Shown here: piece by piece, positions 5,202-10,790 of the stretch
Numbering within the stretch: the first letter of the stretch is position 1
How the letters are laid out: the number at the start of each line of letters is the position of its first letter
Origin: Bacteroidia bacterium
GTDB lineage: Bacteria > Bacteroidota > Bacteroidia > Bacteroidales > VadinHA17
Direction: 5' to 3'
Length of the DNA: 10,802 nucleotides
Assembly (NCBI GenBank): GCA_026391215.1
Contig: JAPLDX010000087.1
Span: 1-10,802 of the forward strand
Translations under genes and position numbers: made by a program
The notes under the pieces: generated by a model
Databases searched by the model: none
Seen by the model: the letters and a program-made list of their open reading frames with translations, nothing else
Told to the model about the DNA's origin: nothing

Positions 5202-7352
5202 CTACTGCCTGATCGTCATTTCATCAACCAGATGTCCGGCTCCTGCATAAACGTCCATGATCCAGAGAACATATCTTATATCAACAGAAATGGTCCTCTG
5301 AAGTTCGGGTTCATAAGCTACATCGCCGCTCATTGCTTCCCAGTTACCATCAAATGCAAGACCGATAAGCTCACCATTCGCATTCATGACCGGGCTTCCC
5401 GAATTACCTCCGGTTATATCATTTGTGGTAAGGAAACATACAGGCATATAGCCTTTGGATGAAGCATATCTTCCGAATTCTTTCTTACTATAAAGATCGA
5501 TAAACCTCTGAGGCAGGTCAAACTCATAATCACCAGGTTTGTATTTATCAATCACTCCCTGGAGTGTTGTATAATATTTATAGGTCACAGCATCCCGGGG
5601 ATCATAATTCTGGATAGTACCATACGTGAGACGCATAGTAGAGTTTGCATCAGGATACAGTGTTTTTTCCGGAGTCATTTCCTTCAGAGCAGCAACCCAC
5701 AGTCTTTGTCCTTTAAACAAGTCCTGATCGAACTTGCTGCGTTCCTGTCCAAGTGTCCTGGCGACATTGATGAATGAGTTATAGGTCAGTATCACCGGAT
5801 CATTCTCAAGGGTTTTAAGAACAGGTTTATTCAGGAAGGCTGTCAGTTTTGCTTCACTTGCAAAGATTGATTTCGAAAACATGTTGTCAACGAATTTGTC
5901 AATGTTTCCCTTGAATTTTGCATCAATTACTTTAATATAGAAATCGGGATGGAACTTTTCAGGAACATCAGCCCTGAAGAGTTTCAGCATTGCCTTCATT
6001 GATTTCTGATCAGTTGGAGGATTATAGTCCTTGTAAATTTCACCGGTATTTTCCATGATCAGCCTGGTGGCTTCTGAGATCTTCTGGTTATCCGCCGATT
6101 TCAGCGCGGGTAAAAGATCTGCTGTAACCTGATTAAAACCAAGCAGTTCGCAACCCAGGAGGCATTCATTAAGGTATTGAGATGCATTCTGAAATTCTGC
6201 CCTGCCCTCGATAGAAGATTTTATCAGATTCAATGCTTCACCATATTTAGCTTTACGGTCGGCATTTGCATTCACCCATGTGTTGAACTGATTTTCAATC
6301 TGCTGTTTCTTTGCTATCACATTAAGGTTTTTGAGCTGGTTATTCTGTCCTATTGAATATTTCCAATAATTTGAGGAACCTGAATATTTTGAAGCATACT
6401 GGATGTCAATTTTCTCACTTGCCATCATATCTGCCAGCCAGATCTCCTGTTTGATCCCGCGTATCTTTATCCTGTTGGGATTTGTAATATTCAGAAGCTC
6501 ATTTACCTCATATGAGGTAAAGTATCTCTGTGTTCTTCCGGGGTATCCCATGATCATTGCGAAATCACCTTTATTAAGGTTCTTTAAAGAAACAGGCAGC
6601 CAGTATTTTGGTTTGAGAGGGATATTATCCTTTGAATATTCAGCCGGTTTGCCGTCAGGTCCTGAATAAACACGGAATACGCTAAAATCACCAGTATGAC
6701 GCGGCCATTCCCAGTTATCGGTATCGTCGCCATATTTTCCTATTGATGAAGGAGGTGCTCCGACCAGTCTGACATCAGTATATCGTTCATATACAAGAAG
6801 ATAAAAATAATTACCGCCATAAAAGGATGAAACACCTGCCCGGTAATTGTTCCCTTCGGTGGCTTTCCTTTCAATAGCCTGCCTGGCTGAATTGATTGCT
6901 GCATTTCTGTCAGTTTCGTTCATCTCAGGATTAACGGTTGCAAGAACCTGATCAGTAACATCTTCGATCCTTATAAGGAATGTAACACCGAGTCCCGGAT
7001 TAGGAAGTTCATCTTCCTTTGTCATAGCCCAGAAGCCGTCCTTCAGGTAATCATGTTCCACAGTACTGTGCGACTGAATCCTGCCATAACCGCAATGGTG
7101 ATTGGTAAGAATGAGTCCCTGTGATGAAACGATTTCTCCGGTACATCCTCCTCCAAAGCTTATGATGGCATCCTTTATACTTGGCTGGTTAAGGCTGTAG
7201 ATCTCTTCAGCTGAAAGCTTCAGTCCAAGCTCGGTCATTGTCCCCATGTTGAGTTTCTCGATCAGCGGCAGCAGCCACATACCTTCATCAGCCCTGGCTT
7301 TAAATCCGAAGCTGACAACAATAATTATTAAAACAGAAATGAGTTTTTTCAT
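5202..7352 (-). CDS. dpp7: S46 family dipeptidyl peptidase, DPP7 type
   Basis: Signal peptide then ADEGMWL; catalytic triad motifs TNHHC (His), NWEWPRHTGDFS (Asp) and DITGGNSGSPV (Ser). The S1 motif AFDGNWE has Gly, as in DPP7, not the Arg of DPP11. Confidence 0.95.
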   Translation of the reverse strand: MKKLISVLIIIVVSFGFKARADEGMWLLPLIEKLNMGTMTELGLKLSAEEIYSLNQPSIKDAIISFGGGCTGEIVSSQGLILTNHHCGYGRIQSHSTVEHDYLKDGFWAMTKEDELPNPGLGVTFLIRIEDVTDQVLATVNPEMNETDRNAAINSARQAIERKATEGNNYRAGVSSFYGGNYFYLLVYERYTDVRLVGAPPSSIGKYGDDTDNWEWPRHTGDFSVFRVYSGPDGKPAEYSKDNIPLKPKYWLPVSLKNLNKGDFAMIMGYPGRTQRYFTSYEVNELLNITNPNRIKIRGIKQEIWLADMMASEKIDIQYASKYSGSSNYWKYSIGQNNQLKNLNVIAKKQQIENQFNTWVNANADRKAKYGEALNLIKSSIEGRAEFQNASQYLNECLLGCELLGFNQVTADLLPALKSADNQKISEATRLIMENTGEIYKDYNPPTDQKSMKAMLKLFRADVPEKFHPDFYIKVIDAKFKGNIDKFVDNMFSKSIFASEAKLTAFLNKPVLKTLENDPVILTYNSFINVARTLGQERSKFDQDLFKGQRLWVAALKEMTPEKTLYPDANSTMRLTYGTIQNYDPRDAVTYKYYTTLQGVIDKYKPGDYEFDLPQRFIDLYSKKEFGRYASSKGYMPVCFLTTNDITGGNSGSPVMNANGELIGLAFDGNWEAMSGDVAYEPELQRTISVDIRYVLWIMDVYAGAGHLVDEMTIRQ

Positions 7353-7391
7353 GATATTATTATTTTCCTGATTGATTTATGATTAAAACGT

Positions 7392-7399
7392 CAAAGATA
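7392..7399 (-). promoter_or_regulatory. Bacteroidota primary-sigma -7 box (TAnnTTTG) upstream of dpp7
   Basis: Minus strand reads TATCTTTG about 40 nt upstream of the dpp7 ATG, followed by an A/T-rich leader with no Shine-Dalgarno. Confidence 0.6.
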
Positions 7400-7425
7400 A
7401 TTCTTTAAACAATATAAGGATTTGG

Positions 7426-8025
7426 TTAGAATGCAAAAGTCATCTGTGTATTAAAAAGAGCGAATGATTTTCTATGATATGGTGTGATGCCATGTTCCAG
7501 GATAGCATTTCTGTGAAAAGCCGTTGCATAACCCTTGTTCCTGTTCCATCCGTAATCAGGGTATTCATTATGAATTTTCTCCATTAATTCATCGCGGAAG
7601 GTTTTTGCAAGAACAGATGCTGCAGCTATTGAAAAGAAAAGACCGTCTCCTTTGATTATTGTATTATGCTTTATGTTTTTGTATGGATAGAAAGTGTTCC
7701 CATCGATAAGAAGGAACTGAGGTTTTAGCTTGAGTCCGTCAATTGCCAGGTGCATGGCCTTTATTGATGCCCTGAGTATATTTATTTCATCGATCTCATT
7801 ATTGTCAACAACACCTATATTCCAGGCTATGGCCGATTCCTTTATTTCATCCTTCAGCAAGCTTCTCTGCCTGGCGGTCAGCTTCTTTGAATCGTTTAGT
7901 ATGGGATGCTTATAATTTCTCGGGAGGATAACTGCAGCTGCCACAACCGGGCCTGCGAGACATCCTCTGCCGGCCTCATCGCATCCGGCTTCTATCAGAT
8001 TATGAAAGAGATTCGATTTTAACAT
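7426..8025 (-). CDS. rnhB: Ribonuclease HII
   Basis: GCDEAGRGCLAGPVVAAAVIL, LNDSKKL, EIDEINIL.AS..AM, LIDGN, IIKGD...SIAAASVLAK..RD, NKGY.T..H, HRKSF. Confidence 0.97.
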   Translation of the reverse strand: MLKSNLFHNLIEAGCDEAGRGCLAGPVVAAAVILPRNYKHPILNDSKKLTARQRSLLKDEIKESAIAWNIGVVDNNEIDEINILRASIKAMHLAIDGLKLKPQFLLIDGNTFYPYKNIKHNTIIKGDGLFFSIAAASVLAKTFRDELMEKIHNEYPDYGWNRNKGYATAFHRNAILEHGITPYHRKSFALFNTQMTFAF

Positions 8026-8176: not shown

Positions 8177-8197
8177 GCAACCTGACAGGTTTTTTTG

Positions 8198-8698
8198 ATG
8201 ATGAAAGTTTTGAAGATACTGATGCCATTTTTCCTGGTTTCATGGACAAATGTTTTTTCACAGCAATTGTCACATCAGGTTCTTGTTCCGCTTGCCGGCA
8301 TAACTTCAGACAATAAAATCAGTTATTCCCAGACCGTTGGTGAGACAGCCGTAGAGATTGTAGAATGTTCGCCATATGTCTTTACGCAGGGATTTCAACA
8401 GCCGGGCATAAAGCTTTCACATGAAGATCCTCCTCCGGGAACAGGAGTTAATGTATACCCGAATCCGGCAACCGATTATATTACCATTGAGTTATTCGGA
8501 GAATCGTCAAGGACATTCAGGATTGATATTGTCAATATTACAGGAACAGTGGTTCTGACTGAAAGGAAGGTTTTTGACGGCCAGTTCTGGTATAAGGAAC
8601 CTCAGAATATTGAGAACCTGATAAGGGGTTTCTACCTTATAAGAATTTCAAGCGAAGATGGCATTTTGAACCGGGCATTCAAGATTGAAAAGATTTAA
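8198..8698 (+). CDS. Small T9SS type A sorting (CTD) domain-containing protein
   Basis: Sec signal peptide ending VFS-Q; a ~50-aa N-domain (QVLVPLAG...SYSQTVGETAV...FTQGFQQP); a Pro-rich linker; then a CTD (VNVYPNPATDYITI...IVNITGTVV...GFYLIRI...FKIEKI). An ATG at 8198 or 8201 is preferred over the TTG at 8195. Confidence 0.9.
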   Translation: MMKVLKILMPFFLVSWTNVFSQQLSHQVLVPLAGITSDNKISYSQTVGETAVEIVECSPYVFTQGFQQPGIKLSHEDPPPGTGVNVYPNPATDYITIELFGESSRTFRIDIVNITGTVVLTERKVFDGQFWYKEPQNIENLIRGFYLIRISSEDGILNRAFKIEKI

Positions 8699-8708
8699 AC
8701 CATAAGCT

Positions 8709-10574
8709 ATGGTTTCGAAACGTACAAACAAATTCATCTTATCACTGGCTTTTTCGATAGCAAGTATTGGCATATTTGCACAGGGTAATGTACCGTTGGG
8801 GATTCATTATCAGGCTGTCGCAAGAGACAATTTCGGCAATGAACTTGTCAATAAAAAGATAAGCGTCAAGTTTTCAGTTATCTCAGGAAATCCATTAGGT
8901 ACAATCGTATATCAGGAACTTCATCAGGATATATTTACATCCAAATTCGGAGTCTTTTCCCTTATCATAGGACATGGTGTACCAACTGGCGGCACACAGT
9001 GCGGAGAGCTTTCACAAATAAGCTGGGAGAGCGCCAATCACTATCTGAAGGTTGAGGTAAAATTTGAAAATGATTTTATGGATATGGGAACGATGCAGTT
9101 TCTGGCTGTTCCATATGCTTTATATGCCGGGAAGTCGCTTGAACCGGGTCCGGCAGGTCCACAGGGAGAACAGGGACTAAAAGGCGAGCCGGGAGATCCG
9201 GCATCAGATGACCAGACACTCTCCTTCGACGGAAGCACGATTTCAATAGCAGACGGTAATTCTCTTTCTCTTACAGATCTTCTTCAAAACCTGACAGTTT
9301 CATATCAGAATGACGGCACCTACCTGGGTATTTCACGCGGAAATTCCGTAAAGCTGGCAACAATTGAAGCAGACGGAGACCCGAGAAATGAACTGCAGGA
9401 TCTGACGATCAGCTCAGATATGATGAAAATCACAAATAACTCCCTGGCGACAGAGTGGGATCTTTCACCTTACAGGCAATCGCTGTCATGGGACCCGGTG
9501 ACAAGGGTTTTGAACATTTCAGGAATTAGCACACCGATTAATCTCTCTGAACTTAAGAACGACGATGATTCAGATATTACAAATGAGATCCAGGATATTT
9601 CACTTGCCGGAGACCTGCTGACCATAACCAGAAATGAGTCATCTTCTGGAGTAAGCCTGAGTAAATATCTTGATGATACAGATAAGCAGCAGATGGAATT
9701 CAGTACCTCTGATAATATACTTTCACTGACAAACAGTACATCAGTTGATCTGACTTCTCTTAAGAATGATGCGGATTACGATATAACCAATGAAATACAG
9801 GACATACAGCTGACAGGAGATCTCTTAACCATTACAAAAAATAGCGGATCAACGGGTGTCTCAATGAGCAAATACCTTGATAACACTGACAACCAGCAGT
9901 TATCATTCAGCGGAGATTATAAGCTTTCGCTGACAAACAGTGTTACAGTTGACCTCAGCTCCCTGGCAGATGCAGATGCAGATCCGGCTAATGAGATTCA
10001 GGACCTGCAGCTTGTTGGAAATAAGTTGTCCATAACCCGTAAAACCGGAGCATACGAGCTGAATATGGCTGATTACCTGGATGATACAGATGATCAGACA
10101 CTGGAATTCGTTGAATCGGATCTTACAGAGTCTGTTACAATTTCAGAAGGTAATAGTGTGGTTATTGATAATAAGGTGGCGTTCAGGGCGAAAAAAACCA
10201 CATCAGAAACAGTGTCAGTTTGGAAGACAGATTATGATTTCATTATGGAAGCTCCTGAATATAATGAGGGGGAGGGGTTTGATTATACAACAGGTGAATT
10301 TACCGCTCCATTTATTGGAGTATATGTTTTTGATATCAGTTATACTGCGACAGAGGGTGTAGACGGCGGGGATTCCAGAATTTTAAAGATTCAATATAAA
10401 CACGGGCTAATAACAGAATACGAAATCCTTAATAGTCATATAGATAATGGCGTTTCGATTATAAGATCAATTACTTTAAAGTTAAATATTGGTGATAAAA
10501 TAAAACCAATAATTAATGTGGGTAATGGTTATCAAACAGGCACAGGTTCATTTTCGGGCTTCAAGGTTAATTGA
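8709..10574 (+). CDS. Secreted fibre-like protein: YQAVAR/VPYALYA N-domain, short collagen segment, acidic beta-repeats, C-terminal C1q-like domain
   Basis: Signal peptide ending IFA-Q (aa 1-24); N-domain aa ~28-141; (Gly-X-Y)6 at aa 147-164; NE[IL]QD repeats at aa 227, 292, 361 and 428; C1q-like head aa ~488-621 (VAFRA...YNEGEGFDYTTGEFTAP..GVYVF...TLKLNIGDKI...SFSGF). Confidence 0.85.
   Translation: MVSKRTNKFILSLAFSIASIGIFAQGNVPLGIHYQAVARDNFGNELVNKKISVKFSVISGNPLGTIVYQELHQDIFTSKFGVFSLIIGHGVPTGGTQCGELSQISWESANHYLKVEVKFENDFMDMGTMQFLAVPYALYAGKSLEPGPAGPQGEQGLKGEPGDPASDDQTLSFDGSTISIADGNSLSLTDLLQNLTVSYQNDGTYLGISRGNSVKLATIEADGDPRNELQDLTISSDMMKITNNSLATEWDLSPYRQSLSWDPVTRVLNISGISTPINLSELKNDDDSDITNEIQDISLAGDLLTITRNESSSGVSLSKYLDDTDKQQMEFSTSDNILSLTNSTSVDLTSLKNDADYDITNEIQDIQLTGDLLTITKNSGSTGVSMSKYLDNTDNQQLSFSGDYKLSLTNSVTVDLSSLADADADPANEIQDLQLVGNKLSITRKTGAYELNMADYLDDTDDQTLEFVESDLTESVTISEGNSVVIDNKVAFRAKKTTSETVSVWKTDYDFIMEAPEYNEGEGFDYTTGEFTAPFIGVYVFDISYTATEGVDGGDSRILKIQYKHGLITEYEILNSHIDNGVSIIRSITLKLNIGDKIKPIINVGNGYQTGTGSFSGFKVN
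9147..9200 (+). repeat. Collagen-like (Gly-X-Y)6 coding segment
   Basis: GPA GPQ GEQ GLK GEP GDP. Confidence 0.9.
9366..10169 (+). repeat. Four degenerate intragenic tandem repeats of about 65-69 aa
   Basis: Unit pattern DxDxxNE[IL]QD[IL]xLxGxxLxIT....[VL]x[LM]xxYLDxTDxQx[LM]xF. The best-conserved pair starts at 9552 and 9759 (CTTAAGAA, 207-nt period). Confidence 0.85.
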
Positions 10575-10588
10575 TTTTCTTGATATAT

Positions 10589-10790
10589 ATTGATGGGCCC
10601 CCCGCTAAGGCGGGGCAGGTTCTCCGCGGTTCTGATTCTGATAGATTTGTATAACAAATATTGATGGAATCCCTCTGGGATTCTCAGATCATTTTAAGTC
10701 AGTTTATTAGAATTGATGCAACCGCTCCGCGGTAACATCAACGGAAATTCTGAGCAGAATTGTTAGAAACCGCACAGGGTTACATTAATT
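10589..10790. repeat. Cluster of REP-like palindromic units headed by ATTGATG (three direct, one degenerate inverted)
   Basis: Copies at 10589 (ATTGATGG...CTCCGCGGTTCT), 10660 (ATTGATG-GAATCCC-TCT-GGGATTC-T) and 10712 (ATTGATGCA-ACCGC-TCC-GCGGT). An inverted copy at ~10765-10789 reads ATTAATGTAACCCTGTGCGGTTTCT on the minus strand. Confidence 0.7.

Follow-up and report, generated by a model that had tools for sequence, protein, structure and literature searches.

A gene for a small T9SS-tagged protein is paired with a MAT-like fiber gene in Bacteroidota: a possible adaptor or anchor for surface fibers

The subject of this study is a two-gene locus of a Bacteroidia bacterium from the VadinHA17 lineage of Bacteroidales (assembly GCA_026391215.1), where two plus-strand open reading frames (ORFs) lie side by side at the right end of contig JAPLDX010000087.1. 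This contig of 10,802 nucleotides (nt) was analyzed over its whole length and is called the window below (it is C61 among the 135 contigs of a 3.39-Mb genome; C, G, L and P numbers are our handles for contigs, genomes, loci and proteins). Gene 1 encodes a small protein with the C-terminal sorting domain (CTD) of type A cargo of the T9SS (type IX secretion system), and gene 2 encodes a long fiber protein without such a tag that resembles the mosaic adhesive trimer (MAT) fibers of Bdellovibrio (Table 1). Tentatively, and with slightly less than even confidence, we read the two genes as one operon that builds a two-part cell-surface fiber.

The small protein and the fiber

Gene 1 is what the first-pass annotation of this DNA had seen in it, namely a signal peptide, a domain of about 50 amino acids (aa) ending in TQGFQQP and a type A CTD. 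The CTD scores above the curated cut-offs of both Por_Secre_tail (PF18962; residues 87–156, 44.8 bits, cut-off 27) and TIGR04183 (32.6 bits, cut-off 23), which by sequence makes the protein a T9SS type A cargo, and AlphaFold2 (AF2) models it as a beta-sandwich with a predicted local distance difference test (pLDDT) score of 83–92. Nothing else was recognized in residues 23–86: the conserved domain of about 50 aa, called the module hereafter, is absent from the Pfam, NCBIfam and PHROG matches, and an ESM Atlas search returned CTD clusters only. In the AF2 monomer model, residues 22–74 stay below a pLDDT of 50, which is what one would expect if this part needs a partner to fold.

A search with gene 1 at E ≤ 0.001 found 601 homologues; among these, the 120 best ones listed are mostly 165–167 aa long and 60–98% identical. 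Alignment of 31 orthologues places a glutamine at the mature N-terminus of every one of them and shows residues 23–70, the module, to be nearly invariant and the CTD to be more variable. The mean pairwise difference is lowest for neighboring rnhB (RNase HII; 0.26), followed by the module (0.34) and the CTD (0.50), and the conservation of the module is about that of its housekeeping neighbors. A module profile built from 27 diverse members matches 7,512 cluster representatives at E ≤ 0.001, a number that falls to 1,677 at E ≤ 1e-10. Among the best 150 representatives, 101 are 150–199 aa long with the module straight after the signal peptide, 105 match a CTD profile derived from the family, and a few are longer, have two modules or, by eye, show Asp/Gly-rich repeats at the end and no match to that CTD profile. 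Six module proteins of 228–384 aa (P0241, P0178, P0212, P0248, P0252 and P0220) show dockerin- or calcium-binding-like Asp/Gly repeats by eye and no match to the family CTD profile.

For gene 2, the earlier claim of a Sec signal and a C1q-like C-terminus, with neither lipobox nor CTD, was borne out by domain searches and by cysteine content. A lipobox is absent because C98 is the sole cysteine, and the idea of a lipoprotein was rejected on this ground. No match to PF18962, TIGR04183 or TIGR04131 appeared at E ≤ 1, and we also rejected gene 2 as a T9SS cargo in its own right: it lacks a type A or type B CTD, and the C1q domain occupies the C-terminus up to residue 603 of 621. The C1q assignment passes its cut-off by a small margin (PF00386, residues 491–603, 25.5 bits, cut-off 23.7). 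Six of ten relatives scanned have a C1q match, four of them above the cut-off and the best at 35.9 bits, and phrog_15750 matches the head with an E-value of 6.9e-8. Sequence searches of the PDB gave weak matches only, to C1q-like proteins 2 and 3 (E 0.24 and above) and to one CTD.

The protein had also been labeled a collagen fiber, which gives the collagen too much weight: the triplet stretch is limited to six units (PF01391 at 15.2 bits, below its cut-off of 27.2) and the shaft consists mostly of NE[IL]Q repeats, with the motif at residues 227, 292, 361 and 428. No relevant tandem repeats were found at the DNA level in the shaft, and residues 347–403 match phrog_13843. Orthologous fibers carry longer triplet runs, one relative (L075) reaching 31.4 bits for PF01391. 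Across loci L048–L090, these fibers are between about 380 and 826 aa long, the numbers of NEIQ repeats and triplets varying with base and C1q head constant; the fibers of L064 and L087 look truncated. C1q and collagen parts are expected to trimerize, and the product of gene 2 would be a homotrimer displayed at the cell surface.

At the other end of the fiber, the N-domain is modeled by AF2 with a pLDDT of about 90 over residues 31–131 and with strands spanning residues 32–131. Foldseek found no PDB match for it at E ≤ 0.001, and a wide VIA-align comparison gave a best Z of 6.5 with generic Ig-like sandwiches, T9SS CTDs (Z 5.6–5.9) being tied with many others. Residues 22–94 match NF053851 (Bdello_MAT_N; E 2.6e-7, 30.6 bits), as do 10 of 10 paralogues scanned (35.1–58.5 bits, best E 6.8e-16), and because these scores lie below the cut-off of 60 bits, we place the fiber as a homologous relative outside the Bdellovibrio MAT subfamily. 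MAT fibers were described in 2024 as prey-recognition adhesins of Bdellovibrio bacteriovorus (Caulton et al., PMC10769870). According to the passages of that paper available to us, its 21 MATs, S74 and non-S74 alike, share a conserved domain, rich in beta structure and about 130 aa long, right after the signal peptide, and their tips include the S74 chaperone-protease and TNF/C1q-like folds. Gene 2 has the same layout, with a signal peptide followed directly by a beta-rich N-domain and with tips that vary within the genome, and judged by its sequence it is a new relative of this known MAT-like kind.

The genome holds 17–18 ORFs with the N-domain of gene 2. Among the 16–17 further ones, several are tandem neighbors and many sit where a contig ends; nine paralogues that were scanned carry Peptidase_S74, FISUMP, YadA head, MopE-type motif or phage fiber repeat tips, and none of them a CTD. 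An N-domain tree puts 13 of 16 unpaired fibers of this genome into one well-supported clade, its deeper branches being unresolved, and this clade looks like a lineage-specific expansion. The first-pass observation of a two-gene unit is confirmed, and what it overlooked is the MAT-like family and the unpaired paralogues.

Around the two genes, a spacing of 10 nt behind a single promoter-like motif had been noted and is confirmed (Table 1). This motif, TAnnTTTG, which upstream of gene 1 may be the Bacteroidota -7 promoter box, has five copies on the plus strand of the window, and a sigma-70 promoter scan found 7 sites against 8.1 expected. Gene 1 has three candidate starts (TTG 8195, ATG 8198 and ATG 8201), of which 8198 or 8201 is likely because orthologues begin MKVL or MMKVL. 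The hairpin past gene 2 has no T-run on its 3' side, and a role as terminator is a guess. Upstream of the pair, the minus strand carries genes for an S46-family peptidase and RNase HII (rnhB) at 5202–8025.

Table 1. Features of the two-gene locus, in window coordinates, and further fiber ORFs of the genome, in contig coordinates
Feature	Position	Strand	Basis
TAnnTTTG promoter-like motif, 19 nt 5' of first gene 1 start codon	8169..8176	+	regular expression
Gene 1, small T9SS type A CTD protein, 167 aa	8195..8698	+	ORF, PF18962/TIGR04183 matches
Gene 1 signal peptide, residues 1–22, cleavage before QQ	8195..8260	+	read from sequence; AF2 helix 2–25
Gene 1 conserved module of about 50 aa, residues 23–70, ends FTQGFQQP, single Cys58	8261..8404	+	alignment of 31 orthologues
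Gene 1 Pro/Gly-rich linker, residues 71–86	8405..8452	+	variable alignment columns
Gene 1 type A T9SS C-terminal sorting domain, residues 87–167	8453..8695	+	PF18962, TIGR04183, AF2
Intergenic spacer, 10 nt	8699..8708	+	terminator-like site not found between genes
Gene 2, CTD-less MAT-like fiber, 621 aa	8709..10574	+	ORF, domain searches
Gene 2 Sec (signal peptidase I type) signal peptide, residues 1–24, no Cys	8709..8780	+	read from sequence; AF2 helix 3–27
Gene 2 MAT-like N-terminal beta-sandwich domain, residues 25–143, single Cys98	8781..9137	+	NF053851 match below cut-off; AF2
Gene 2 six G-X-Y triplets, residues 147–164	9147..9200	+	regular expression
Gene 2 shaft, half repeat plus four NE[IL]Q repeats of about 63–69 aa, residues 167–487	9207..10169	+	regular expression
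Gene 2 C1q/TNF-like head, residues 491–621	10179..10571	+	PF00386, phrog_15750
GC-rich hairpin 26 nt past gene 2 stop (stem 6 bp, loop 4 nt)	10600..10615	+	read from sequence
Further fiber ORFs	C134:29550-35865, C128:1-9119, C42:1217-6489, C26:205-3391; also contigs C102, C71, C69, C75, C36, C91, C17		N-domain

Conserved pairing across Bacteroidota

The neighborhood of the small gene was surveyed in one genome per species. The only queries were two peptide patterns taken from the small protein, and they yielded 62 loci. A fiber N-domain ORF lies downstream on the same strand in 58 of them, and 53 of these 58 pairs overlap or are at most 50 nt apart, the other gaps being 115, 208, 226, 1186 and 1667 nt; in most loci the gap is 0–16 nt. 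This is pairing far above chance. The order S46 peptidase, rnhB, small gene and fiber is shared by 43 of the loci, with rnhB upstream in every one of these orthologous loci and the peptidase also visible within the fetched flank in 38, and because kin are not independent we count all 43 as a single inherited case. The remaining 19 loci are non-syntenic and belong to Saprospiraceae, Chitinophaga, Parapedobacter, Flavobacteriales, Cyclobacteriaceae, Lentimicrobiaceae and other Bacteroidota. Their small proteins are 24–38% identical to that of the window, and 15 of the 19 keep a downstream fiber, of 505–1556 aa where complete and cut by the locus end in four cases.

What changes at these distant loci is the tip of the fiber, which can be C1q (L093), FISUMP (L109) or long collagen (L092 and L094). 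At L096, L102 and L105, a large NEIQ-repeat protein ends 2–5 nt before the small gene, its N-terminus lying outside the fetched stretch, and Pfam confirmed S74 in only one of these three, the fiber-like gene of L105; L107 has no fiber in view. Conserved adjacency of the two domains, set as a test beforehand, thus holds and includes the distant loci, and the claim of the first-pass annotation that such pairs recur in Bacteroidota with different tips proved right for C1q, FISUMP, S74 and long collagen.

Presence of the two genes is also joint at close range. Among 24 genomes of the same genus, a small-gene orthologue occurs in 13, with an adjacent fiber orthologue in 12 and the thirteenth cut by a contig end, and the 11 genomes without a detected small orthologue have no fiber N-domain match above 44% identity. 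In one genome (G022, C19:11504-12444), the small gene and the fiber N-domain are each split into two frames, which may reflect joint decay or assembly errors. By coordinates, relatives hold further, non-orthologous pairs, for example four in G033. At one of these pairs (L017:400-3420, minus strand), the module and a type A CTD form the last 150 or so residues of a multi-domain protein of at least 642 aa, followed by a 353-aa fiber with a MAT-like N-domain and a long collagen run. Taken together, functional coupling of small protein and fiber is very likely. In a literature search, mostly of listings, we found neither a description of this pairing nor the string GFQQP.

The fixed genomic position also bears on whether the locus is a prophage or tailocin remnant, that is, a phage tail fiber with an accessory gene. 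Matches of gene 2 to PHROG families (phrog_15750 and a weak tail-fiber family) and paralogues with S74 and phage fiber repeats would suit such an origin. Both proteins carry Sec signals, however, the pair keeps its housekeeping position in 43 of 43 orthologous loci, no other phage genes were found in the window, and the pattern used detected no relative of the module in a viral contig collection. A phage origin therefore has hardly any probability left in our estimate, and we rejected it on the housekeeping synteny and the absence of the module from viral contigs with that pattern.

Export, anchoring and contact

With the presence of a T9SS judged from PorV and CTD ORFs, this genome has a clear PorV gene on C38 (NF033710, 487 bits), with a CTD-bearing ORF of 1140 aa immediately upstream; its type A CTD ORFs number 23. 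It holds one PorV and one PorQ-like gene, both outside the operon of the window. At two distant loci, a PorV paralogue sits between the small gene and the fiber, in Parapedobacter (L094:5384-6538, 402 bits) and in Chitinophaga (L098:5448-6632, 374 bits; cut-off 250), and the PorV genes that pass the cut-off number 2 and 3 in the respective genomes; the Chitinophaga locus contains an additional low-complexity ORF of 137 aa before the fiber. At L107:4983-9651, the CTD joined to the module is of type B, and a PorP/SprF gene and a 976-aa ORF come next. The link to the T9SS is reinforced by the PorV paralogues inside these two distant operons.

We arrive at a reading, which falls just short of an even chance in our judgment, of the small protein as a T9SS-coupled adaptor or anchor for the fiber base. 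The fiber itself could not carry the strictly C-terminal T9SS signal because its C-terminus is the working tip (in paralogues, a self-cleaving S74 chaperone), and gene 1 would supply this signal in trans. The module would dock on the fiber base in the periplasm, the type A CTD would bring the complex to the T9SS (PorV/SprA), and after export the small protein would hold the fiber base at the outer membrane, either via CTD cleavage and attachment to anionic lipopolysaccharide (A-LPS) or via continued binding to a PorV-type barrel. Piggy-back export, tethering, the trimer state and surface exposure are all steps that this scheme presumes. In this full form, with a mini-protein that docks on the base of a tag-less fiber, gives the signal in trans and stays behind as membrane anchor, the scheme is possible rather than probable. 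If true, no hitch-hiker mechanism would have preceded it in the T9SS, and the mini-protein would be the long-sought "surface element" holding MAT-type fibers.

Conserved adjacency, varied tips and the genomic link to the T9SS all favor the carrier and cargo reading of the first-pass annotation; they do not distinguish carrier from anchor, and binding is the part that has to be presumed. The small protein could instead be an anchor only, exported alone, fixed via A-LPS or a PorV/PorQ-type barrel and serving as a socket for the base of a fiber that crosses by another route. Such fixation has a precedent in PorU and PorZ, which PorV and PorQ keep on the cell surface. The adjacency and joint presence data fit this alternative equally well, the roughly 64 residues left after CTD removal would suit a membrane-proximal socket, and a partner-independent export route must exist if one considers the MATs of Bdellovibrio, an organism not known to have a T9SS, together with the 16–17 fibers without a partner in cis. 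The MAT paper itself (PMC10769870), in the part available to us, expects a yet unidentified partner for the N-domain, which "would presumably tightly bind a surface element", a point that favors the adaptor-or-anchor reading as well, and the fiber passages of a 2026 review (PMC13689555) do not mention a surface partner of this domain. On the other side, no other outer-membrane export route for the fiber was identified here, and a PorV paralogue within the operon fits export equally well. We regard an anchor-only role as unlikely, though well worth keeping in view.

Unpaired members of both families were also listed. None of the 23 type A CTD ORFs of the genome adjoins another fiber, and among the 108 fiber N-domain matches listed about one fifth have a detectable adjacent small partner. 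The only other module protein of this genome, an orphan of module and type A CTD (158 aa; G000 C100:44637-45113, L047:4638-5114), has no fiber nearby. Similar orphans occur by coordinates in relatives (G001 C25, G004 C3, G009 C24, G010 C13 and G014 C24). Orphan mini-proteins might serve unpaired fibers in trans.

Contact between the two proteins was approached in three ways. A complex prediction with three copies each of fiber residues 25–165 and small-protein residues 23–86, using their own alignments, scored 0.02 against a mark of 0.32, which tips the balance on binding to neither side. A correlation of distances for module and fiber N-domain is covered below. Finally, each mature protein has one cysteine, Cys58 of the small protein (8366–8368) and Cys98 of the fiber (9000–9002), and among 44 orthologous pairs the fiber cysteine is present in 19 of 30 with the small-protein cysteine and in 0 of 14 without it. 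On the tree this co-occurrence comes down to 3–5 independent contrasts (sign test, p = 1) and is not significant once kinship is allowed for, so that an intermolecular Cys58–Cys98 disulfide is a hint at most.

Several observations weigh against the small protein as adaptor or anchor. Only 1 of the 17–18 N-domain fibers in this genome has an adjacent module-plus-CTD gene, and the genome has only two such small proteins, which means that most fibers are placed without a partner in cis or that the partner acts in trans; the unpaired fibers weaken the idea of the partner as a general export requirement. The occurrence of MAT fibers in Bdellovibrio likewise implies that the N-domain needs no T9SS in general. 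Some of the best 150 module proteins end in Asp/Gly-rich repeats, as judged by eye, and have no CTD-profile match, so the module is not restricted to T9SS cargo. A fusion of module and fiber N-domain was found in 0 of the best 150 representatives, nor was one seen among the longer forms with residues 23–86, the latter being weak evidence. With a partial r of 0.42, the distances of module and fiber N-domain correlate no more strongly than in the rnhB control (0.39). That the two proteins bind each other physically is something we infer, and we count this on the same side.

Some of these points would also be expected if the two proteins were merely co-expressed and never met, the small protein being an independent T9SS surface or signaling protein (for example, a regulator or an adhesion co-factor) and the operon serving co-regulation. 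Minimal CTD proteins can indeed signal, as does PorA of Porphyromonas gingivalis. The co-evolution signal does not exceed the rnhB control, and both orphan module-plus-CTD genes without an adjoining fiber and module proteins with other C-termini exist. However, the mostly very short gaps, the change of tips under constant pairing, the pairs in five named distant families or genera and the joint presence of both genes are stronger than is usual for mere co-regulation, and we consider this explanation improbable.

An assembly role in the periplasm has even less to recommend it. While the trimer folds, the module would transiently cap the base of the fiber; the small protein would then leave via the T9SS without the fiber. 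Phage-type fibers often need dedicated chaperones, and in keeping with this the module does not fold by itself in the model and S74 domains occur in paralogues. The secretion tag, and a PorV paralogue of the operon's own in two lineages, would be left unexplained, and a fiber with its own S74 chaperone also adjoins the small gene (L105); we deem such a factor very unlikely. For the reading of the small protein as adaptor or anchor, the consequences reach beyond this locus. It would offer a testable route by which proteins with an obligatorily free C-terminus enter a secretion system that reads C-terminal signals, and because the module family is large (7,512 cluster representatives) and in no library searched, its function would annotate thousands of genes.

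Comparison with known systems

The pairing suggests an undescribed way to export or mount fibers of this kind, and several known systems share parts of it. With T9SS type A cargo such as P. gingivalis PorA, gene 1 shares a Sec signal and a Por_Secre_tail domain, in a genome with PorV and 23 CTD ORFs. Unlike such cargo, its passenger is only about 64 residues long and lacks a catalytic or adhesive domain, the module is in no library searched, and a gene of this type nearly always adjoins a tag-less fiber gene. PorU and PorZ on PorV and PorQ resemble the proposed anchor in that a CTD protein is kept on a PorV-family barrel, and PorV paralogues are found in two distant operons, whereas the operon of the window has none.

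Another resemblance is to the nap of the Bacillus exosporium, where BclA, a trimer of collagen and C1q-like parts, is attached by its N-terminal part to BxpB of the basal layer. There, a small base protein of its own carries the N-terminal end of a collagen/C1q-like trimeric fiber, as is proposed here, and the head of one relative matches BclA_C weakly (28.8 bits, cut-off 38). The differences are another phylum, another envelope, no secretion system and base proteins that are unrelated in sequence.

For export, the closest parallel is hitch-hiking via the twin-arginine translocation (Tat) pathway, for example of the small and large hydrogenase subunits, which appears in the reference list of PMC9251779. 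The likeness is that one subunit bears the targeting signal for a folded complex, and the difference lies in another translocon and another membrane. In its passages on the T9SS, piggyback and hitch-hiking, the same source describes hitch-hiking for Tat and peroxisomes and none for the T9SS.

MAT fibers remain the nearest relatives of the fiber itself, with a signal peptide, a conserved N-domain, a long shaft and swappable tips, and with a big family per genome (21 there, as given in the accessible part of PMC10769870, and 17–18 here). The fiber described here differs in its Bacteroidota host (sediment-type metagenomes), in the NEIQ repeats and collagen stretch of its shaft and in being paired with a T9SS-tagged mini-protein, which that part of the MAT paper does not mention. 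How the MAT base is held at the cell surface is left open there (PMC10769870, same part), and the T9SS-tagged partner is a concrete candidate for this role. A shared base that takes exchangeable tips and has a separate anchor would also be of use as a surface-display scaffold in Bacteroidota.

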